Of a DNA stretch of 64,000 bases, positions 25,709 through 63,992 are shown piece by piece. The translations under genes were made by a program, and so were the position numbers. This DNA comes from Escherichia phage AV128, in the sequence record OR352958.1, one strand, 5' to 3'. A model generated the notes under the pieces. The model was not told the origin of the DNA, made no database searches, and saw nothing but the letters and a program-made list of their open reading frames with translations. Each line of letters starts with the position of its first letter. Positions within the stretch are counted from its first letter, which is position 1.

Positions 25709-28606
25709 ATGTTTCCACAATTGAGAGTTCGCAGCGGTTACACGTTCAAAGAAGTATATGGACGGCATCCTGAAATTATAGCACGGCTCAAAGAGTTGGG
25801 CTGCGAAGTCGCGGCATTAGTTGATAACAATACATGGGGTCACGTCCGATGGGAAAAGGAATGTCAGAAGAATGATATCAAGCCTGTGTTCGGCATGGAG
25901 ATTCCAATCATCGACCCTGATGCAGACCCGAAAAAGGGATTCAAACCGAAGGCTTGGATATTGGCTCTTGACCTGAAATCCTTTTACAATGCGACCACGC
26001 TTGCAACACAACGCGGCGGACTGACCCGTGCAGAGTTCGGGGCGCTCGATGGAGTCATTAAATTCTGTGGCGGTGCCGTGGAGTTGCTGCGACCAGAGGA
26101 CTACGATTATATAGACGTCAACCCATCATCGTTCCTTTTGGCCAAGCGCCAGGTATTGGCTCACCGCAGCAACGGAAGGCCGCTTGTTTTAACCGGATAC
26201 AACCACATGCCTTCACCTGCGCACGTTGACTTTGCTTATGCTTGGGAAGTTCGCGACACGGTTAAGCCGCACTGCATCGTTGACGCGGAAGACTTGCGCA
26301 AACAGCTTAAAGGAATCCTGACCGAAGATGAGTTGAATCAAGCAACGGCCAATGCGGTTGACATTGCAAACGGAATCGTGGGACTTGACCTGAAGCTGCG
26401 CAAGGCACCGATTATCCACCTTGCTGGTGACATGGTAAAACTTGCTCGCGAGGGGATGGAGTACCGCCTTAAGGCAGGTCACATCAAAGAATGGACTCAG
26501 GAATATGAGGACCGATTCAACGAAGAGATTCACCAGATTCAGCTGAAAGATTTCGACTCATACTTTCTGGTGGTAGCGGACCTTGTTCGATTCGCAAAAA
26601 CAAAAATGCTCGTCGGACCCGCTCGCGGCTCATCGGCTGGTTCACTGGTTTGTTATTGCCTCGGCATCACGGAAGTCGACCCAATCCCGTATAAGCTGCT
26701 ATTTGCCCGATTCATCGACGTAAGCCGCGCCGACCTTCCTGATATTGATATTGACTTTGAGGATACCAAACGCTATATGGTGTTTGATTACCTTAAAGAA
26801 AAATACGGCGAAATGAACGTTGCAAAGCTTGGCAACATCAACACGCTTAAGGCCAACTCAGTAATGGCTCAGGTTGGTAAGAAGTTCAACATTGGCTATC
26901 ACGAAACGGCCAACATTAAAAACGCATTGCTTGAATACTCATCCGGTGACGCCCGTTATGGTCACGGCCTGGAGGATACCTTTGCAACAACGACCACGGG
27001 TCAAGAGTTCGTGGCGAAATATCCTGATGCCGCGCGTTGCATGGGCGACCTTGAGATTCACCCGTCCCACACAGGGGTGCACGCAGCGGGAATCATTGTG
27101 TGTAATGACCCAATCTCTGATTACTGTACTGTAACTGCAGAAGGGATTGCGCAAATCGATAAGCCTGACAGCGAATACCTTAACCTTTTGAAGCTTGATG
27201 CACTGGGCCTTCGTACTCTCGGCATTATTTCTGATACAGGCGTTATTGATGCTGAAACGCTTTACGGAATCAAGCTTGATGATCAAAGCGTACTTGACAT
27301 TCTTAACGAAAACAAGATGTCAGGCATCTTCCAGTTTGAAGGTGACGCTGTACGCTCAGTAACAAACTTTGTGCACGTCGACAACTTTAACAAAATCGAC
27401 AACCTGACAGCTTTGGGTCGACCTGGCCCGTTGTCATCCGGTATGGCCCAGAAATACATTGAACGCGCGGCAGGGCGTGCGCCGATTGAATACGACGTGC
27501 CGCAGCTTGAGCCGTACTTAAAAGAGACTTACGGAGTGTTTCTTTACCAAGAGCAAATCATGGCCGTGGTTAAAGAGATTGGTTCATTTGACTGGGCGAA
27601 AACGTCCGCTGTACGTAAGGCAATGTCAGGCCGTAAGGGTGAGGAATACTTCAACAAGCTTGGCGAGGACTTCGTTGCAGGCGCAATAAATAACGGCGTA
27701 CCGGAAGCGGATGCAAGAAAGCTTTGGCAAGCAATGGCTACGTTCGGGTCATGGGGCTTTAACAAGTCGCACTCCGTGTCATACGCGGTCGTGACCTACT
27801 GGACATTGTGGCTTAAGCGACACTACCCGTTGGAATTTGCCGCTGCCTGCTTACGCGCTGCTAAGGACGAAGACCAGACGATTGCGATATTACGTGAACT
27901 TGCGAAGGAAGGCGTGGATTACGTTCCAATCGACCCTGATCACTCTTCAATGAACTGGACAATCGCGAACGGAAAGCTAATCGGCGGCATTATGAACGCG
28001 AAAGGGTACGGAATGGTGAAGGCGATGAAGTACATCGAAGCGCGTGAAGCCGGAACCTTAACGCAGAAGCAAAAGGACGCATTGGCCAATGCTGAAGTAA
28101 AATATGGCGACCTTACAGAGATGCACACAAAGTTCGGCTGGGCGTATAATGACCCGTATCTGATTGGTGTGACGTCCGGCGCTTCAATACGCCAGATGAA
28201 GGAAGTCGGTGATGACGAGCGCGCAATAGTAATCGGCAAGTTGACAAAGAAAGTGCTTGCGGACGAGAACGAAGCAACACGCATCCGTAAACGACTTGAG
28301 CGCGGCATCTATACAAAGCACGGCAAGCTTAAAAAGGGTCTTCAAGCTGATGGCCGCTACGCAGAGTTTGACCAGTACGGGAACAAGCTTGAGACTCAGT
28401 TCATCGACCTTATGTGCAAAGACGACTCGACCGACTCGCCAATGCGCTTCAGGATTCGTCCAGAGAAGTTCCAGAAGTACGGGAAGTACATCGCTGAAAA
28501 CGTCGGGAACGGCGCATTCTTCCTGATGAAAGGTCGTAAGCTTGAAGGCATTGACATGTTCATCGTTGACGTGATCAAACAGGTGTATCCAGATGGCAAC
28601 AAATAA
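25709..28606 (+). CDS. DNA polymerase III alpha-like (DnaE-family) replicative polymerase
   Basis: GPARGSSAGSLVCYCLGITEVDP and DIDIDFED palm-domain blocks as in DnaE; 965 aa. Confidence 0.7.
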   Translation: MFPQLRVRSGYTFKEVYGRHPEIIARLKELGCEVAALVDNNTWGHVRWEKECQKNDIKPVFGMEIPIIDPDADPKKGFKPKAWILALDLKSFYNATTLATQRGGLTRAEFGALDGVIKFCGGAVELLRPEDYDYIDVNPSSFLLAKRQVLAHRSNGRPLVLTGYNHMPSPAHVDFAYAWEVRDTVKPHCIVDAEDLRKQLKGILTEDELNQATANAVDIANGIVGLDLKLRKAPIIHLAGDMVKLAREGMEYRLKAGHIKEWTQEYEDRFNEEIHQIQLKDFDSYFLVVADLVRFAKTKMLVGPARGSSAGSLVCYCLGITEVDPIPYKLLFARFIDVSRADLPDIDIDFEDTKRYMVFDYLKEKYGEMNVAKLGNINTLKANSVMAQVGKKFNIGYHETANIKNALLEYSSGDARYGHGLEDTFATTTTGQEFVAKYPDAARCMGDLEIHPSHTGVHAAGIIVCNDPISDYCTVTAEGIAQIDKPDSEYLNLLKLDALGLRTLGIISDTGVIDAETLYGIKLDDQSVLDILNENKMSGIFQFEGDAVRSVTNFVHVDNFNKIDNLTALGRPGPLSSGMAQKYIERAAGRAPIEYDVPQLEPYLKETYGVFLYQEQIMAVVKEIGSFDWAKTSAVRKAMSGRKGEEYFNKLGEDFVAGAINNGVPEADARKLWQAMATFGSWGFNKSHSVSYAVVTYWTLWLKRHYPLEFAAACLRAAKDEDQTIAILRELAKEGVDYVPIDPDHSSMNWTIANGKLIGGIMNAKGYGMVKAMKYIEAREAGTLTQKQKDALANAEVKYGDLTEMHTKFGWAYNDPYLIGVTSGASIRQMKEVGDDERAIVIGKLTKKVLADENEATRIRKRLERGIYTKHGKLKKGLQADGRYAEFDQYGNKLETQFIDLMCKDDSTDSPMRFRIRPEKFQKYGKYIAENVGNGAFFLMKGRKLEGIDMFIVDVIKQVYPDGNK

Positions 28607-55614: not shown

Positions 55615-57033
55615 TTATTCCCCTTTCAACCAAGCTTCAAATGCTTCGTCAGTTGCTGCAGAATCCGCAGCAGCCTTTTGTTTTGCGACTACACGCTGTT
55701 TTTGACCGTGTTCAACGCCGCGCAGATAATTATCCACCACGTCAAACTCAGCACCATCAACGCACTTCAAGCCTAACTTTTTAGCGCCATATTTCGCTAC
55801 GGACTTGGAGTCCATAGTTGCATGATCAAAGGCACCAACAACTTTAGACAGGCGCTGGTAGAGGCTATTCTTACGAGCAGAATCAGCGTAGAAAGCAGCA
55901 ACTGCTGAATCAGATGCCATTGAGTGTTCCCCTTTTGCTGGACCTGGCGACGCTTTCGCCGCTTTTGTCGGTTTGTCATCTTTTTCGACCGAAGCCCCCT
56001 TTACGTTGCTGTTTTGCAGGCCGCTAACCACATCTTCAGCTTTGTCGCAAGGTGATACATCTTCAGCCTTGACTTCAACTTCTTCGTCTTTGACTTCGGC
56101 TTCAACTTCTTCTTCATCACCTACCGCGCCACCTTTCAGTTTTGCAATAAGTGCTTCGATTTGGCTGATCAGTTGCGGAAGCTCGCCGTCAGCGTGAGAT
56201 TCAGTTTCAACTTCAAACTTCTCTTCACCTTCTGGAGTCTCTTCAGCTTCTGCTTTAACTTCTGGATCAACCATCACTTCTTCATGTTCTTCGGTTGAAT
56301 CCTTCTCTTCTGCTTTCACTTCGACTTCGTCCTGATGAGCAGCTTCGGTGCTCTCTTCATTCAGAAATTGTTCGAGCGCAGGGATCAGTGATTTCAGCTG
56401 TTCAACAGCATTATCACGCGCTTTACCTTTTAACGGTTTTGGCATGTCTAAATCCTCGTTGGATGGTGTTACAGTCGTCAAACAAAGATGGTCAAAGCAA
56501 CGACCATCCAGCACCCGTGCACCTGGTACTCGACCAACGTCCACGAGAGCAATGTGGTTGCCGCGAAGAGTTGTCTGTACCACTTCATACGGCTGCCCGT
56601 CAAACTCTCCAGACTGTATGATGAATTCACAGTCATAGCCCAAAGACAAGTCAACCTTTCCAGAATCGATGGCCTTCTTCAGACGGCGGCTAAAAACTTT
56701 GAGGTCGCCGCGCATCCATGGCTTGTCATAATAAACATTGCCAGTTAGAACGCCATCAACACCATACTCTTCGGGTGCTGTGTTATCCTCATCACCTTCG
56801 AATCCAGAAAGCATTTCGTGATTGTCGATGAAAGGGATATTTTTGAATGAATCTATCGCTTCGGGGTCTTTCACCGCTGACTCTGGGCGATAAACTTTTA
56901 CGATGCGATTCGGATCACCATCAAGTCCAACCTGACCTGCAGAATAGTCAAAAATGCCAAATGACGAAATGGGACAACCCACAATCGTCAAGAATCCATT
57001 TTTGTCAATTTCGCGTGCCGTTTGCATTCGCAT
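55615..57033 (-). CDS. prohead protease / scaffold fusion-like protein
   Basis: N-terminal globular domain then long Glu/Lys/Val-rich acidic coiled coil; ATG with GAGGGTGG upstream. Confidence 0.45.
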   Translation of the reverse strand: MRMQTAREIDKNGFLTIVGCPISSFGIFDYSAGQVGLDGDPNRIVKVYRPESAVKDPEAIDSFKNIPFIDNHEMLSGFEGDEDNTAPEEYGVDGVLTGNVYYDKPWMRGDLKVFSRRLKKAIDSGKVDLSLGYDCEFIIQSGEFDGQPYEVVQTTLRGNHIALVDVGRVPGARVLDGRCFDHLCLTTVTPSNEDLDMPKPLKGKARDNAVEQLKSLIPALEQFLNEESTEAAHQDEVEVKAEEKDSTEEHEEVMVDPEVKAEAEETPEGEEKFEVETESHADGELPQLISQIEALIAKLKGGAVGDEEEVEAEVKDEEVEVKAEDVSPCDKAEDVVSGLQNSNVKGASVEKDDKPTKAAKASPGPAKGEHSMASDSAVAAFYADSARKNSLYQRLSKVVGAFDHATMDSKSVAKYGAKKLGLKCVDGAEFDVVDNYLRGVEHGQKQRVVAKQKAAADSAATDEAFEAWLKGE

Positions 57034-57598: not shown

Positions 57599-58519
57599 TT
57601 AGTTCAACTTAATTGCGGTGATCTGTCCGTAAACGGTAGATGTCAATGCGTCTGTGCATTGATAGTTTAGATACACATTGCCAGGCGCGGCAAGAGTAAT
57701 TATCTTTGTTGGAATATTGCCGCCGAAACGACCTGCAGCCCGAATGCCAGCAGACATCGTGAATGCATCATCCGTAATATCTGAATTACTTGTTGACAAT
57801 TTTACTGTAATTCCGGTATTCGCTTGAACTCCTTCTGTTGCGACAGTCAACTGACTTGCTGTCACAAGCCATTTCCCTGCAGGCAGGTTTAATGTTGCCA
57901 GATTCACCAGAGTTGTCGGAGGATTGCTTACACTATTGCTTGTGTTTTGCACATTGCTTGCAGCAGCGTTAAGAACTCCAGAACCATCAATTGATAGTGT
58001 CGTTCCTACTTTTACGCCACCCAAGGTTGATGCTGATGCAATCGGTAATGAGTATTGAGTAACACTAATTGTACCGTCACCTGCAACACTTATGCCACTT
58101 CCTATCTTGACGCCGCCGAGAACAGAAGCCGTTGCCGCTGGTAACGTGTATTGGTTGCCGCTGGATTTGACTACCTTAACGGCGACAGCATTCTTGGACC
58201 CTCCAGACTCCATGCCTATAATCACTGCTTCTCCAAAAGCGATGGTGATTGTAGATGCAGTTAAACCAGTCTGCACGTCTGTTATGTCCATTTTGGGAAC
58301 TGAAAGTGTCAGATTCGGCTTGCTGGTAGAATCGCCATCATTACCGATCATAAAGAATTGGCCGACTGAATTGTATCCAGATGCCAATGGCGGACTCAAT
58401 GGAACAATCAAATTTTTATCGGATGTAAATTCTGAAACAATCGCCAAGCCGTTAGCATATACAGCAGGCAATACTGGCGTCTGTCCAGATAGAGGAAACG
58501 TGCTGATTGGTATCGTCAT
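57599..58519 (-). CDS. fiber-like repeat protein (~306 aa)
   Basis: repeats ATASVLGGVKIGSGISVAGDGTISV / ASASTLGGVKVGTTLSIDGSGVLN; start trimmed to ATG with GAGGT upstream (track start 58588 is GTG). Confidence 0.45.
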   Translation of the reverse strand: MTIPISTFPLSGQTPVLPAVYANGLAIVSEFTSDKNLIVPLSPPLASGYNSVGQFFMIGNDGDSTSKPNLTLSVPKMDITDVQTGLTASTITIAFGEAVIIGMESGGSKNAVAVKVVKSSGNQYTLPAATASVLGGVKIGSGISVAGDGTISVTQYSLPIASASTLGGVKVGTTLSIDGSGVLNAAASNVQNTSNSVSNPPTTLVNLATLNLPAGKWLVTASQLTVATEGVQANTGITVKLSTSNSDITDDAFTMSAGIRAAGRFGGNIPTKIITLAAPGNVYLNYQCTDALTSTVYGQITAIKLN

Positions 58520-58526
58520 AATGACC

Positions 58527-59378
58527 TCAAATGATTGGTATTTTTCTGCACTTGCAGTGTATCGCCCATCCAGGAGGACCGATGTCACCCTTTTTGAACT
58601 TCAACTCTCCGCCCACTTCCCATAGACGCTTGTCATCAAGTTTGAATCTCATTCCGTCGACATGTTCATGAGAGATTCGCGGCTCCTTTCCTGCTCCTGA
58701 GTGCGCCCATTCAAATTCTTCAACTCCATTCTGGCGCATCCTTTCATCGCTTAGAACGCAATACAATTTGCTTGTCTGGTCTTTAGCGATTAAGTCGACT
58801 CTCTTTGCAGAGAAGTGTTTTACGTTTCGCAGCGCCGCCTGAATGCCTGACGTGCCTTGCTGGGCTGGGTCGGGCGAAGTCAGCGAAAGCATTACTGCTT
58901 CGTACACTCTGTTGTGAATGTCCTCGCCAACCTTAGTCACTAGAGTCGTGTTAAACGTCTCGCTTGTTCTAAGAGTGTTCTCAACGAATTTGTTATATGT
59001 GGCCTTTGGCGCTTCTATGCCTGCGGACTTAAGGCTTGCGAATGTAGCAGAAGTGGCACCCTTTTCGACCGATTTGATAAAATCAGCGGCAATCTTCGAC
59101 CCAACACGTGCAAACGCCCTTGCCCATTTCAGCTGCAGACGTTTCATAAGAGTCTGGAATGTTGAATCAGCAGAGTCTTGCGCAAAGAACTTCTGCACCT
59201 GCTTCTTTTCAAGCCACTCTGAAATTCCTGCCTGATAGTCATCAATCATCGCATAGCAAAGACCTTTCATCTCACGACGGTAGGCCATCGCAATAGCGTT
59301 TGATGGGATTATCGGACTGCCGCGCCCGATTCTATCGGGTGAGCGGCGTTCACGTTTTTTCGAAGCTTTAAAAGCCAT
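58527..59378 (-). CDS. head morphogenesis protein (MuF/SPP1 gp7-like), putative
   Basis: position between portal and head genes; basic N-terminus; start trimmed to MAFKASKK. Confidence 0.45.
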   Translation of the reverse strand: MAFKASKKRERRSPDRIGRGSPIIPSNAIAMAYRREMKGLCYAMIDDYQAGISEWLEKKQVQKFFAQDSADSTFQTLMKRLQLKWARAFARVGSKIAADFIKSVEKGATSATFASLKSAGIEAPKATYNKFVENTLRTSETFNTTLVTKVGEDIHNRVYEAVMLSLTSPDPAQQGTSGIQAALRNVKHFSAKRVDLIAKDQTSKLYCVLSDERMRQNGVEEFEWAHSGAGKEPRISHEHVDGMRFKLDDKRLWEVGGELKFKKGDIGPPGWAIHCKCRKIPII

Positions 59379-59379
59379 A

Positions 59380-61755
59380 TCAACCTTGCTTCGGTGAATT
59401 AGTAGGATTATTGAGTGCTCCGTATGCTTGAGAGCAATCACCCTTCAACCACTCCTTGAATGAGTTCACATCTAATTCGTGGATTGAGTCGAATCCGTTC
59501 CAACCGTTACCAAATGATGCTTGATAAGCTTCTTTCGCTTCTTCTGCTGAATCGAATCCAAGCATACACTTGTGTTCATCAAACTCGCCAGAGTAGTTAT
59601 CGTTTTGGTTCACGATAAAGACTTTCGGCGACTTCAGATTTGGACCCACAAAGCAGTCGACTTCATCACCGTCTGCGCCCTTGGTGCCCTTGATGAATCC
59701 GTAGTGGTGCGGCATCTTCACGGCCCATTCACCGTCAAGGCTGTTTCCTCTACGAATGCTGTTTCGCGGATTCTCAATGCCAAGAATCATTCCGTGCAAC
59801 TTCATCTTAGGTAATGATGCTGCGTCCATTTTACCCACGTTGTGGCGTAAGTTGACGACGTGTCCTTTAACGCTTGGAAGGGTAGACGGTTGCACCGACC
59901 GTGAATCTTTTTGAGGGTCAAAATCCACATCCTGACCTTCTTTCAGGTAGTAATCCGCAATACCCTCCAGACCTTCTTTCAACTGCGTTAGGACATCAAC
60001 CTGATGGCTTGATTCATCATCGGTATCGTCCATGTTGATTTCGACAGGCGCTTTGTCAGGGTTTTCCGCCAACTCACCACGCGCGGCACCCTCTGGCATA
60101 ATACCTGTTTCACTATAGAACTGGCCGCCCATCTTAACGACATCAGCTTTCGCCTGTTCAATATCGGCCTTACCTTGCAGGACTTCACCAGCAGACTTGC
60201 CAAGCAATGCCATATTCTCTGGAGACATCCCTGGGGTTTCTTCTGCTGCGTCTTCCGGCAGACGGTTGTAGCCGCTGTTTTTGTCGTCTTTGATGCGGTC
60301 GCGCTCTTCATCAGGAGAAATGACGCCAGCATCAATAAGAGTTTTGCCAGTGTTGGCTCGCTTATCATTGATTTCTGCAAGTTGAGTAGCAGTAAGTGAG
60401 CCAACTGGTTCCCATGCAACCTTAACATCGACGTCCACCCCTTCTGATTTGAGAAGGATTTTGTAATGGCGGTCGAGAATTTTTGTCAGGTCATGCTGCT
60501 GGCACGTTTCCAACTCTTCGTGATAGCTGACCATCTCGAATTCACCAGTGGCGTTAAAGCCTTTTGGCGAAGTCCCAAGCAGTTTGGTCGACGGAACTTT
60601 TGCGATTGCGGCCACTAGCTGGTACTGGTTCATGATGATGCTGTCGAAGTCTGACAAGTTGATGTCAAACTGGTCCATCTCTTCTTTTTGTCCAAGCACT
60701 TTGACTGCATAGTTGTCGCGGTACTTGATCCACATCATCAGACGTTCTGCAAAAGACCGCTCATTGGCAATCGCCTTGTCAACGTCGGTCCGCAGCGTGG
60801 TTGTACGCTTGGACATCGCCAGCAATGGCGCTTCGTTAGCGGTACGTTCAGCGGCATAGATGCGTTCATAAATCTGCTGAGTCAGAGGAATGCCGCCGTA
60901 AATATAAGTTGGCTTGAGAATATCAGCTGGCTCATCATTGCGCAAGATGATGAGGTGACTTCGATGATAACGTTGTCCGCTGATCACCCAGTATTCTGGA
61001 TCATAGAAGTGCTGTGATGCAGGGTCTGCGGTATTTTCAGACGTCAAAAATGGCATCATCCAATAAGGGTCAACCTGAATGATTCCCTTATAAGACCCCT
61101 TTGTCACACCATCAATGTTAAAAGGCTTGCTGTAATATTCTGGGTCATCGCTACGCACATCAAATATGATGACGCGGATACCAAAAATATTTTTGAATCG
61201 TTCGGCTTCAACTAAGTGCTCTTTGATATTAAATTCTTTATCAATTTGCTTTAGGCGTTCGCTTGCCTGCACAGACAATTCTGATTCAGAGCTTGATTTT
61301 ACTTCCCAACCTTTACGCACTGCATCACGGCCTACCATAGAGCAAGCCTTGTTTACCAGCCAGTGTTGCGCGATAATTGCGCAAGCTTGATAGCCGATAA
61401 ATGATTGCGACAAGTACCAGTTTTGCAACTGAATAGGTACTGTATATGGATTCACCTGCCCTTCTGAACTGATGTTCTTTAAGGCATTATCCATAACCTT
61501 TTTGGATACGGTTGCTGAATCTACTGAGCGACCTTTGATGATTGCAACACCGTCCCCGTTGATATCAGGCTCATACAAAGGAAAGTCATCAACGGTTTTA
61601 AAGGTCGGGCGGTTGCTTTCGGTCTTATCCCAGCGTTGACCGCTGCCGCGCCTTTCCAGGCGTTCGAACGGTGCCAATGGGTCGCCTGGCGGCATCTCCG
61701 CTGGTTCGGCTTCTGGTTGCGTCTTCTCCCAGAGTTTTATGCCAAGAATTTTCAT
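59380..61755 (-). CDS. portal protein with C-terminal extension
   Basis: about 790 aa between terminase and head morphogenesis gene; start trimmed to MKILGIK (AGGTGG upstream); C-terminal ~150 aa carry a pyrophosphatase-like DGDEVDC signature. Confidence 0.5.
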   Translation of the reverse strand: MKILGIKLWEKTQPEAEPAEMPPGDPLAPFERLERRGSGQRWDKTESNRPTFKTVDDFPLYEPDINGDGVAIIKGRSVDSATVSKKVMDNALKNISSEGQVNPYTVPIQLQNWYLSQSFIGYQACAIIAQHWLVNKACSMVGRDAVRKGWEVKSSSESELSVQASERLKQIDKEFNIKEHLVEAERFKNIFGIRVIIFDVRSDDPEYYSKPFNIDGVTKGSYKGIIQVDPYWMMPFLTSENTADPASQHFYDPEYWVISGQRYHRSHLIILRNDEPADILKPTYIYGGIPLTQQIYERIYAAERTANEAPLLAMSKRTTTLRTDVDKAIANERSFAERLMMWIKYRDNYAVKVLGQKEEMDQFDINLSDFDSIIMNQYQLVAAIAKVPSTKLLGTSPKGFNATGEFEMVSYHEELETCQQHDLTKILDRHYKILLKSEGVDVDVKVAWEPVGSLTATQLAEINDKRANTGKTLIDAGVISPDEERDRIKDDKNSGYNRLPEDAAEETPGMSPENMALLGKSAGEVLQGKADIEQAKADVVKMGGQFYSETGIMPEGAARGELAENPDKAPVEINMDDTDDESSHQVDVLTQLKEGLEGIADYYLKEGQDVDFDPQKDSRSVQPSTLPSVKGHVVNLRHNVGKMDAASLPKMKLHGMILGIENPRNSIRRGNSLDGEWAVKMPHHYGFIKGTKGADGDEVDCFVGPNLKSPKVFIVNQNDNYSGEFDEHKCMLGFDSAEEAKEAYQASFGNGWNGFDSIHELDVNSFKEWLKGDCSQAYGALNNPTNSPKQG

Positions 61756-61861
61756 TGTTAACGCCACCTGACAGTGAAAGGGAATCAATCTATATTATAA
61801 ATATTCATGTGTTTGTAAGCAAATGATATGTATAGTAATCATAAATAGTTCATAAAATATT

Positions 61862-61917: not shown

Positions 61918-62334
61918 ATGAGCACAACAATTGTATTTGTCGTCCTTCATCAAGGCGAAGTAGTAAACGTATGCGAATATGAAGAGTCGGCAAAAGCCAC
62001 TGCTGCGCGATATGAAGGTGCCACAGTCGACCCTTGGATTTTAGATGCGCGCAACGTCTTGCAGGCGACTTTGGATGAGTGGTTGTTGGGTCGCAAGGTC
62101 TATCCAGTAGACAACATCGACTCCATTCAAGGTGAAACAGTATACTTTGAAGATGAATGCGTTCGCGGAATCGGCAAATTTATGGGATTGTGCCCATCTT
62201 CATCCAAAAATAAATTTTATCGTATTCAAGTTGAAGAAAACGATATGTTTGACAAAGTTACGCGCTCGATTGTTCCTGGCGGCGCCACTCCAATCTTCAT
62301 GGCAGAATCAGACATCAAGGGGATTATTAAATGA
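61918..62334 (+). CDS. hypothetical protein (138 aa)
   Basis: ATG with AAGGAG upstream; opposite strand to the surrounding late genes. Confidence 0.5.
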   Translation: MSTTIVFVVLHQGEVVNVCEYEESAKATAARYEGATVDPWILDARNVLQATLDEWLLGRKVYPVDNIDSIQGETVYFEDECVRGIGKFMGLCPSSSKNKFYRIQVEENDMFDKVTRSIVPGGATPIFMAESDIKGIIK

Positions 62335-62570
62335 GAACGTTAACCGAACTCGATGTTTTGAAAGATGTTGCAGCCGCGCTCGGCGTTGAAGTCTCCGATA
62401 AGTCGACACTGGGTGCACTGCGTCGCGATTTACTTGAAGCCGTCGACCGCAACGATTTTGACCGTAAGTGTTTGCAAAAGAAGATTCGACAGGCAGTAAG
62501 AGCGGGTAAGCGATTCCGTGCCAGGTCGTTTGCCGCAAGAAAACTCGACCTTCAGCACGGAATGCTTTAG
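62331..62570 (+). CDS. hypothetical basic protein (79 aa)
   Basis: track ORF overlapping stop of 61918..62334. Confidence 0.45.
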   Translation: MRTLTELDVLKDVAAALGVEVSDKSTLGALRRDLLEAVDRNDFDRKCLQKKIRQAVRAGKRFRARSFAARKLDLQHGML

Positions 62571-62573
62571 TTG

Positions 62574-63992
62574 TTATAGGTTAGAGAAGAAGCCGGATGC
62601 TGCAACAATTGGTTTCATCAATGCCATGATTGCTGCGTCCGCTTTGTTAGGAGATTTGACTCCACGCTTTGCCATATCCTTTTTCGATTCAACTTTGAAC
62701 TTGCCAAGTACAGACGTGTCTTTGCGCGGCGCTGACATTTCAAAAAGAAACGTCTCAATCTCTTCCGCAGTCCAAGCAGGAATCCCAAGTTCTGGAATGC
62801 CGTCTGTGTCGATGGAAATCAACTCATCGGTCGGATATACAGCCTGCCCTGTCGCATACTCGTATGTCTTCCTGAATCGTTCGGCAATCTCAGTCCATTT
62901 TTGCGCTTTTATGTTTGCGAAATGGTCTTTATTGAGTATTTCAACGTGTGGTAACTCAAGGAAGACGTCATCAGGATCATCAACAGCACCTTGCGCGTTG
63001 AATGCATTAAATTCGATTCTTGGGAATGTTGGATTTTCATGGATTGCATACTCATTAAGCTCATCAAATTTTGAACCAGCAAATGCACCAACACCGATGG
63101 CGTCATAGGTGATTGATGCGCCGAATGTCAATGCGTCTTTCCAGACTCCGCTTGCGGACTTAAGCAATTCATCTTCCAGACCTTCCCATGTCTTGATGCC
63201 ACGTAATACGTTGCCTGTGACAAATGCTGTGGCGTTTAAGTCGTCGCCGTCGTCCGCCACGTCGAAGCCTATACGGTTAGACCCTGACAAGCTCCACCCC
63301 AGCGTAGGGTGTTTGTGGAGGTTTAGCGCGGCTTTGACGAATGCACGGTTGATGACCGACTTATCGCCGCCTGTCTTCGGCACTCCGCCATAAACGTGTT
63401 CTGCCTTTTTCGGGTCGCGCTCATACATGCCAGCGATAACATCCAGCATTGTTTGCGACAAGAATGGATTGTCCTGCCAGTTAATCTTCTTAACGATGGC
63501 ATTTTTCGGCGGTCGCATGACAAAGTTCTGGTAGACGAAATCAGCCTCTTCATCAGGGTTAAATATGATCCATATTTCGGACCCTTCCTTACGAATTGTC
63601 GGCTCAATAATGTCCCATTGCTCTTCAGTCAGTGCATGCGCTTCTTCAAGCCAAAGAACATCAACACCTTCTGTTGATTTGATTTCGTCAACGTTGCGTG
63701 CGATACCGTAAAATAAAAATTCAGATTTTGTTCTTTTGTGTTCGATAGAGTTCTTTAATAAGTTGAACTCGTCTTTAAAATCAGAAATCTCTATTTTATC
63801 TTTTAATAGCGTATATACTGATTCAGAAATCTTGTTCTGGAATTGTCGAACGCAAAGGAATTTTAATTTGAAGTTTGCCGCCAAATAAATAGCAAAACCA
63901 GCGGCATCGTGCGATTTGGAAGATGCACGACCGCCGTATATGACTTTGTATCGCGCTTTCGTCTTCCAGACTTCTCTTAAAGCAGGATTCAA
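62574..63992 (-). CDS. terL: terminase large subunit
   Basis: N-terminal Walker A YGGRASSKS; 472 aa; adjacent to portal. Confidence 0.65.
   Translation of the reverse strand: MNPALREVWKTKARYKVIYGGRASSKSHDAAGFAIYLAANFKLKFLCVRQFQNKISESVYTLLKDKIEISDFKDEFNLLKNSIEHKRTKSEFLFYGIARNVDEIKSTEGVDVLWLEEAHALTEEQWDIIEPTIRKEGSEIWIIFNPDEEADFVYQNFVMRPPKNAIVKKINWQDNPFLSQTMLDVIAGMYERDPKKAEHVYGGVPKTGGDKSVINRAFVKAALNLHKHPTLGWSLSGSNRIGFDVADDGDDLNATAFVTGNVLRGIKTWEGLEDELLKSASGVWKDALTFGASITYDAIGVGAFAGSKFDELNEYAIHENPTFPRIEFNAFNAQGAVDDPDDVFLELPHVEILNKDHFANIKAQKWTEIAERFRKTYEYATGQAVYPTDELISIDTDGIPELGIPAWTAEEIETFLFEMSAPRKDTSVLGKFKVESKKDMAKRGVKSPNKADAAIMALMKPIVAASGFFSNL

Follow-up and report, generated by a model that had tools for sequence, protein, structure and literature searches.

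The protein architecture considered here has been described in computational work. InPase was defined in 2017 by Iyer, Burroughs, Anand, de Souza and Aravind (PMC5512222) as a domain of phage polyvalent proteins that is a monophyletic, shortened type I inorganic pyrophosphatase (PPase), and a fusion of this domain to a portal protein was noted in BcepF1.124 (PMC5512222). The same authors proposed that InPase is packaged and injected, and considered as its substrate either a nucleotide-like molecule made upon infection or pyrophosphate (PPi), which would be cleared (PMC5512222). Fusions of 2H, PBECR, Nudix and ART domains to MuF or portal proteins have been described by the Aravind group (PMC5512222, PMC9503650), and such MuF- and portal-effector fusions are interpreted in the literature as injected counter-defence enzymes (PMC5512222, PMC9503650). 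The present analysis concerns the portal gene of Escherichia phage AV128 (record OR352958.1), whose product consists of a portal core, an acidic linker and a C-terminal InPase domain. A stretch of 64,000 nt was analysed (i.e. the window, in whose positions all coordinates are given), which covers nearly the whole genome of a Wifcevirus-type E. coli myophage. The portal-InPase fusion has been known at the computational level since 2017 and is common in related phages; as the result of a genome scan, it repeats what Pfam already annotates and what has been published from computation.

The portal-InPase open reading frame (ORF; 59380..61788, minus strand, stop codon 59380-59382) comprises 802 amino acids (aa) when read from the TTG at 61788, as in the ORF list, and residue numbers throughout follow this 802-aa numbering. 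An earlier note, made from the letters of the DNA, had claimed a pyrophosphatase-like signature at the C-terminus of this ORF, between 59380 and 59830. These coordinates were found to enclose a Pfam-defined domain (aa 660-782; 59443..59811, minus strand) that matched PF18823 InPase in hmmscan at 157-160.7 bits (cutoff 26.8, E=3e-46) over profile positions 12-135 of 135. The profile suggested for checking the claim, PF00719, stayed below its threshold of 23.5 bits, the full protein scoring 18.0 bits and the domain alone 20.7 bits, so that the family interpretation was upheld through PF18823 and not through PF00719. The best phmmer match to a PPase of the PDB had an E-value of 0.16. The last 179 aa were modelled by AlphaFold2 (AF2) using 20 homologues, which yielded a mean predicted local distance difference test score (pLDDT) of 84.5, with values of >90 throughout the folded core. 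In a Foldseek search with this model, the best 50 matches were all family I PPases (probability ~1.0), at identities of 13–21% to the solved enzymes. According to the model, the domain has a PPase-like oligonucleotide/oligosaccharide-binding (OB) fold of ~125 aa, as compared to ~175 aa for E. coli Ppa, in keeping with the earlier impression that it is shorter than a full pyrophosphatase. The InPase family was described as being without the beta-hairpin of solved PPases (PMC5512222); the AV128 model still shows a predicted hairpin (aa 678-691) after strand 1. When searched alone against PHROGs, the C-terminal domain also matched giant phage protein families, including one named 'DarB-like antirestriction'. 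The last ~125 aa of the portal are almost certainly a genuine member of the PF18823 InPase family, and the absence of any significant profile or structural match, which the earlier note had named as grounds for abandoning its claim, was not observed.

The active site of E. coli PPase is formed by E20, K29, E31, R43, Y51, Y55, D65, D67, D70, D97, D102, K104, Y141 and K142. Both peptides quoted in the earlier note are present in the AV128 domain, with YGFIKGTKGADGDEVDCFVG at aa 696-715 (59644-59703) and SAEEAKEAYQASF at aa 747-759 (59512-59550). The first contains the metal-binding D-x-D-x-x-D signature DGDEVDC (aa 706-712; 59653..59673, minus strand), equivalent to D65, D67 and D70 of E. coli Ppa. 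This heptapeptide satisfies the PROSITE (PS00387-type) pattern D-[SGDN]-D-[PE]-[LIVMF]-D-[LIVMGAC], was the sole match to this pattern in the six reading frames of the window (0.009 matches being expected from composition) and was placed opposite the Ppa signature in hmmscan, phmmer and hhalign alignments. Alignments with the E. coli, H. pylori and M. tuberculosis PPases (HMMER and hhalign; the E. coli Ppa sequence used is identical to PDB 4UM4) span strand 1 through the signature. In E. coli numbering, E672 was paired with E20, Y696 with Y55 and D706, D708 and D711 with D65, D67 and D70, and R679 adjoins the K29 position in the HMMER alignment. With hhalign, the InPase alignment was confidently matched to Ppa over 26 columns only (80.9% probability). 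Longer or global alignments to Ppa past the signature consisted of low-confidence columns and were not used for assigning D97, Y141 or K142; no D97 counterpart was assignable in the alignments to Ppa. The model contains a predicted hairpin of two strands (aa 722-729 and 736-743) that topologically matches the strand 6/7 hairpin of Ppa, and by its spacing and this topology D737-E738-H-K740 would correspond to E101-D102-A-K104. The likeness to E. coli Ppa includes a predicted OB-fold core, the YG(F/Y)I...DGDxxD signature, the strand-1 Glu and an acidic pair followed by a Lys in the strand-6/7 hairpin. Unlike E. coli Ppa, which is a free homo-hexamer, the AV128 domain is fused to a virion protein, is ~50 aa shorter and has a sub-threshold PF00719 score.

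Conservation was examined among homologues of the domain. In 21 homologues, E672, R679, Y696, D706, D708, D711, Q728, D737, E738, K740 and Y755 were invariant. For a set of 148 domains, derived from 144 cluster representatives, all of these residues other than D708 (i.e. E672, R679, Y696, D706, D711, Q728, D737, E738, K740 and Y755) were each identical in at least 146 domains, with D706 conserved in 146 and D711 in all 148, while position 708 was occupied by Asp in 135 and by Glu in 12. The predicted Mg2+-binding Asp triad (D706, D708 and D711) is retained, as are the conserved acidic pair beside a conserved Lys (D737, E738 and K740) and E672, R679 and Y696. Within Wifcevirus, the domain exhibited 24 synonymous and 2 non-synonymous differences from that of phage Mansfield, corresponding to a ratio of non-synonymous to synonymous substitution rates (dN/dS) of ~0.015, and is under strong purifying selection. 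A decayed or decoy domain is unlikely because of the conserved residues and the dN/dS of ~0.015, and the reading as an inactive pseudo-enzyme was also rejected on the grounds of the PF18823 match, the unique signature and the near-invariance of the catalytic-type positions. Judged from its sequence, the domain is probably a metal-dependent phosphoanhydride hydrolase.

The domain is joined to the portal barrel by a linker (aa 531-659; 59812..60198, minus strand) that is acidic (D+E 19%, K+R 10%), as the earlier note had described, poorly conserved and probably disordered. An InPase domain was present in 19 aligned portals, while other homologous portals end differently. Across these 19 proteins the mean identity to the AV128 portal was 56% for the core, 49% for InPase and 12% for the linker, the length of which ranged from 29 to 130 aa, and the modelled part of the AV128 linker had a pLDDT of <50. 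The conservation of core and InPase on either side of a hypervariable linker indicates that two constrained domains are joined by a flexible tether. Two described systems share this architecture. The portal-InPase protein of BcepF1 (BcepF1.124, YP_001039808.1) belongs to the same family and has the same order of portal followed by C-terminal InPase; BcepF1 is a Burkholderia virus whereas AV128 belongs to a different genus (Wifcevirus, infecting E. coli), and the likeness is drawn from the published description and not from an alignment. The portal gp19 of the Pbunavirus phages Pa193 (PDB 9B41) and E217 is an orthologous two-domain portal with the same head-gene synteny, and its C-terminal 160 aa are ~52% identical to those of the AV128 portal (E=1e-49); the AV128 linker (130 aa) is longer and more acidic than that of gp19. 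Wifcevirus and Pbunavirus are recognised as distant relatives.

The orthologous portals provide a structural frame for the location of the domain. In the 765-aa portals of Pa193 and E217, only residues ~94-528 were built by cryo-electron microscopy (cryo-EM), and residues 529-765 were without density and were not discussed (PMC11456595, PMC10329688). Linker and domain are invisible in the symmetrised maps of both pre- and post-ejection states, and the C-terminal helical barrel of the portal projects into the head (PMC11456595, PMC10329688). As the barrel of these orthologues points into the head, twelve copies of InPase are very probably located inside the AV128 capsid, above the portal barrel and near the DNA end. 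At the opposite end of the Pa193 portal, residues 1-93 were undetected by liquid chromatography-mass spectrometry, a hint of N-terminal processing (PMC11456595).

Identification of the ORF as a portal was based on a match of aa 133-479 (60352..61392, minus strand) to PF06381 Phage_portal_3 (E=3.4e-88), on the presence upstream of the large terminase subunit and on homology to Pa193 gp19 (PDB 9B41). The core is 50–66% identical to many portals and homologous to gp19 of Pa193 and E217, of which this part has been solved by cryo-EM. The full-length protein matched PHROG 4660 (E=0), and the TIGR01555 score of 92 bits was under the equivalog cutoff of 196. The true start of the portal is likely to be the ATG at 61755, 11 codons downstream of the TTG, giving 791 aa; this start is used in all annotated relatives, Mansfield and Bas99 among them. 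By eye, no convincing Shine-Dalgarno sequence was detected upstream of Met646 or Met654, sites from which a free InPase might be made. The portal gene (2,406 nt) was 97.7% identical to that of Escherichia phage vB_EcoM-Ro157lw and 90–97.7% identical across all 28 matching records (26 Escherichia, one Shigella and one 'Wifcevirus' record). Its product is labelled 'minor head protein', 'portal protein' or 'hypothetical protein' in the records of relatives, and the label 'inorganic pyrophosphatase' was found on this region in one distant relative only (i.e. Luteibacter phage Pluto).

The portal core alone, used as a query, retrieved 2,845 homologues, and C-terminal formats were read among the closest 120 of these (50–66% identity). 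Portals of about 500 aa had nothing past the core, those of about 730-755 aa ended in PF18823 InPase, those of about 665-678 aa ended in PF23474 and others ended in DUF5661. A further format of about 680-750 aa had no annotated end domain and included long low-complexity tails (P0030, P0056, P0069 and P0132). For the C-terminal domain of another portal, P0053 (IIDGHHSLAAAI), a ParB-like guess was dropped as it found no Pfam support and PHROGs gave a weak match (E=1e-3) to a family of unknown function. PF23474 is Acb1, an anti-CBASS 2H phosphodiesterase; the match in portal P0050 had an E-value of 1e-19 and both HxT/S motifs were visible. The cores of four Acb1 portals (P0050, P0061, P0097 and P0142) were 53–56% identical to that of AV128, and two Acb1-portal loci (L003 2288-4309 and L004 762-2783) had the same TerL-portal-MuF-gp24-cement-capsid synteny. 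The likeness of AV128 to P0050 extends to a core identity of 56%, the shared synteny and the placing of an enzyme at the C-terminus after an acidic linker, whereas the fold and chemistry of the enzymes are unrelated, as Acb1 cleaves the phosphodiester bonds of cyclic oligonucleotides and InPase is predicted to act on a phosphoanhydride. The occurrence of InPase, Acb1, DUF5661, a tail or nothing at the same site indicates that the portal C-terminus is an exchangeable cargo position in this lineage.

To assess the distribution of InPase, 1.84 billion cluster representatives were searched with a profile, and 12,196 proteins (50% identity clusters) were retrieved. Most of the best-scoring proteins were 2,000-6,600 aa in length, the size range of 'polyvalent proteins'. 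The family is found almost only in virion-associated phage proteins, and most of its domains lie inside giant polyvalent effector proteins.

These observations suggest a mechanism in which InPase is a packaged hydrolase that is released, injected and active as an early-infection effector. Twelve tethered InPase domains would be packed in the head beside the DNA end, freed from the portal by proteolysis, possibly through the head protease, whose gene is the third one downstream, and carried with the DNA into the host cytoplasm. There the substrate could be PPi or a diphosphate-containing nucleotide-type signal from host defences; if it were PPi, clearance would relieve the earliest transcription and replication reactions of inhibition by their product. 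We lean towards a counter-defence or take-over role over bulk PPi scavenging because sister portals carry Acb1, an enzyme proven to degrade an immune signal, in exactly the same slot and because most InPase domains reside in polyvalent effectors. This chain of events, taken as a whole, is considered slightly more probable than its failure, and the part of it that comprises release from the portal and action as an injected early-infection effector is put forward tentatively, as falling a little short of probable. A bolder form of this proposal would see in the portal C-terminus a general delivery slot in which first-strike counter-defence enzymes (InPase, Acb1 and others) can be exchanged, with an anti-defence InPase that is released by the head protease, injected and directed at the destruction of an immune signal or alarmone (e.g. 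a nucleotide second messenger, an ADP-ribose-derived signal or (p)ppGpp) and not at bulk PPi. We regard this form as rather unlikely. If true, the anti-signalling repertoire of phages would gain a new class of enzyme, one that is present in therapeutically used Pbunavirus phages.

Several points weigh against an injected hydrolase. The PF00719 match is sub-threshold and is confined to 25 residues about the signature, corresponding to positions 32-56 of a profile of 153, and the mapping of the C-terminal half of the domain to Ppa rests on topology and not on superposition. Against PPases, HMMER places a 10-residue deletion at the location of R43 and Y51, just after the hairpin retained in the model. 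No counterpart was identifiable for E31, R43, Y51, Y141 or K142 (E. coli numbering), which bind phosphate in classical PPases, and hence activity on PPi itself is plausible from the sequence but not assured. In the literature, InPase/PF18823 was found in computational papers of the Aravind laboratory only, with no experimental study or enzyme assay of any member. A covalent link holds the domain to a structural protein that does not leave the capsid, and a tether of ~130 aa is far too short to traverse a tail of ~1,300 Å; delivery would thus need cleavage, for which no evidence was found. No proteomic evidence on the presence or cleavage of the portal C-terminus in virions was found, and the E217 paper (PMC10329688) makes no mention of mass spectrometry. 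Finally, some close portals are without any folded C-terminal domain, indicating that the function of the domain is dispensable for assembly.

An alternative explanation is that the domain is a housekeeping PPi scavenger that pulls phage transcription and replication forward without an immune role, being active after injection or, late in infection, as surplus portal that has not been assembled. True PPases have this metal-binding signature, the structural matches were to PPases only and PPi clearance is one of the options of Iyer et al. (PMC5512222). A demand for PPi removal can also be envisaged, as the phage encodes a Pol III alpha-type replicase, primases, helicases, a ligase and ThyX, and as Wifcevirus replication is reported to be very fast (3-5 min). 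The host, however, already has an abundant and essential Ppa, to which twelve molecules per virion would add little bulk PPase activity, and R43, Y51, Y141 and K142 are not recognisably kept. The occupation of the same portal slot by Acb1 and the membership of a polyvalent effector family point instead to conflict functions, and scavenging is accordingly rated as an unlikely primary role, albeit one with a real claim to consideration. The replication genes in question lie at 13496-34507 and include that of a Pol III alpha-type DNA polymerase (25709-28606, plus strand), whose PHP domain is weak, and those of an SNF2 helicase, a VapE-like protein, a RepB-type primase, an SF1 helicase, ThyX, a PNKP-like phosphatase and a probable ligase. 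A PPi-clearing role has also been suggested for the PHP domain in the literature (cited in PMC5512222), which bears on the need for a separate PPi scavenger.

A second alternative would dispense with both catalysis and injection. Here the acidic metal-binding domains would remain on the portal as a non-catalytic module of the head interior, serving as a plug, sensing head-full pressure or the end of the packaged DNA, or acting as a sink for Mg2+ or polyamines. The covalent link to the DNA-facing C-terminus of the portal and the lack of evidence for cleavage are consistent with such a module, and the invisibility of the domain in the symmetrised maps of Pa193 and E217 neither shows nor excludes retention. 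A role as portal plug is impossible for the same domain in the thousands of giant non-portal proteins in which it is internal, and it is exactly the PPase catalytic positions that are near-invariant. In other portals the slot is taken by enzymes such as Acb1, and close relatives have no domain there at all. Taken together, these observations make a purely structural module improbable. The remaining explanation, a chance motif in an unrelated C-terminal extension, could appeal to the sub-threshold PF00719 match of 25 residues and the 13–21% identity to solved PPases but is refuted by the PF18823 match (E=3e-46), a pattern that is unique in six frames with 0.009 occurrences expected, a confident model matching PPases only and a conservation in 148 domains that reaches E672, R679, Y696 and D737-E738-x-K740, and retains practically no probability.

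The injected-hydrolase account concerns a very large family (~12,000 clusters at 50% identity) that is present in Wifcevirus and in therapy-used Pbunavirus, and two recent cryo-EM atlases of Pbunavirus phages passed over the last ~240 residues of the portal. If the account is correct, the 125-aa domain would provide a compact and tractable model for widespread virion-delivered effectors, in a phage that grows on E. coli K-12 derivatives, and possibly a new anti-defence activity.

The portal gene is part of a head module whose order on the minus strand is TerL, portal, MuF-like, a 329-aa protein, a DUF2213/gp24-like protein and the capsid genes. TerL (62574..63992, minus strand) matched PF04466 Terminase_3 (E=3e-37). 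Directly downstream of the portal, a MuF-like head morphogenesis gene (58527..59378, minus strand) matched PF04233 Phage_Mu_F at 30.8 bits (cutoff 29.6). The junction of these two genes reads TGA-T-ATG, such that the MuF-like gene, with its start codon taken as in relatives, begins one base past the portal stop. The DUF2213/Pa193_gp24-like protein (55615..57033, minus strand; 472 aa; PF09979, E=2.8e-35) is labelled head maturation protease or scaffold in relatives, and a putative scaffold function, with persistence under the five-fold vertices, has been ascribed to Pa193 gp24 (PMC11456595). This protein is a candidate for processing of the portal. Its N-terminal domain is conserved, and the middle part that comes next is extremely acidic, repetitive and rich in Glu, Val, Lys and Ala.

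Two further features of the module were recorded. The 329-aa ORF (57599-58588, minus strand), located between the MuF-like gene and the protease/scaffold gene, contains a duplicated motif, Y(T/S)LP.A.AS.LGGVK.G...DG.G., and matched the phi29-type head fibre family PF11133 (E=1.8e-7); it is annotated as 'tail fiber protein' or hypothetical in relatives and may be a head fibre or decoration protein. Scans of the whole window for tRNA genes and Rfam families returned no tRNA genes and no Rfam matches at the gathering threshold. Between the terminase and portal genes, two small genes on the opposite strand (61918-62334 and 62331-62570, both plus strand), encoding 138 and 79 aa without a Pfam match, split the otherwise co-directional packaging module and are kept in Mansfield and Bas99 as hypothetical proteins.

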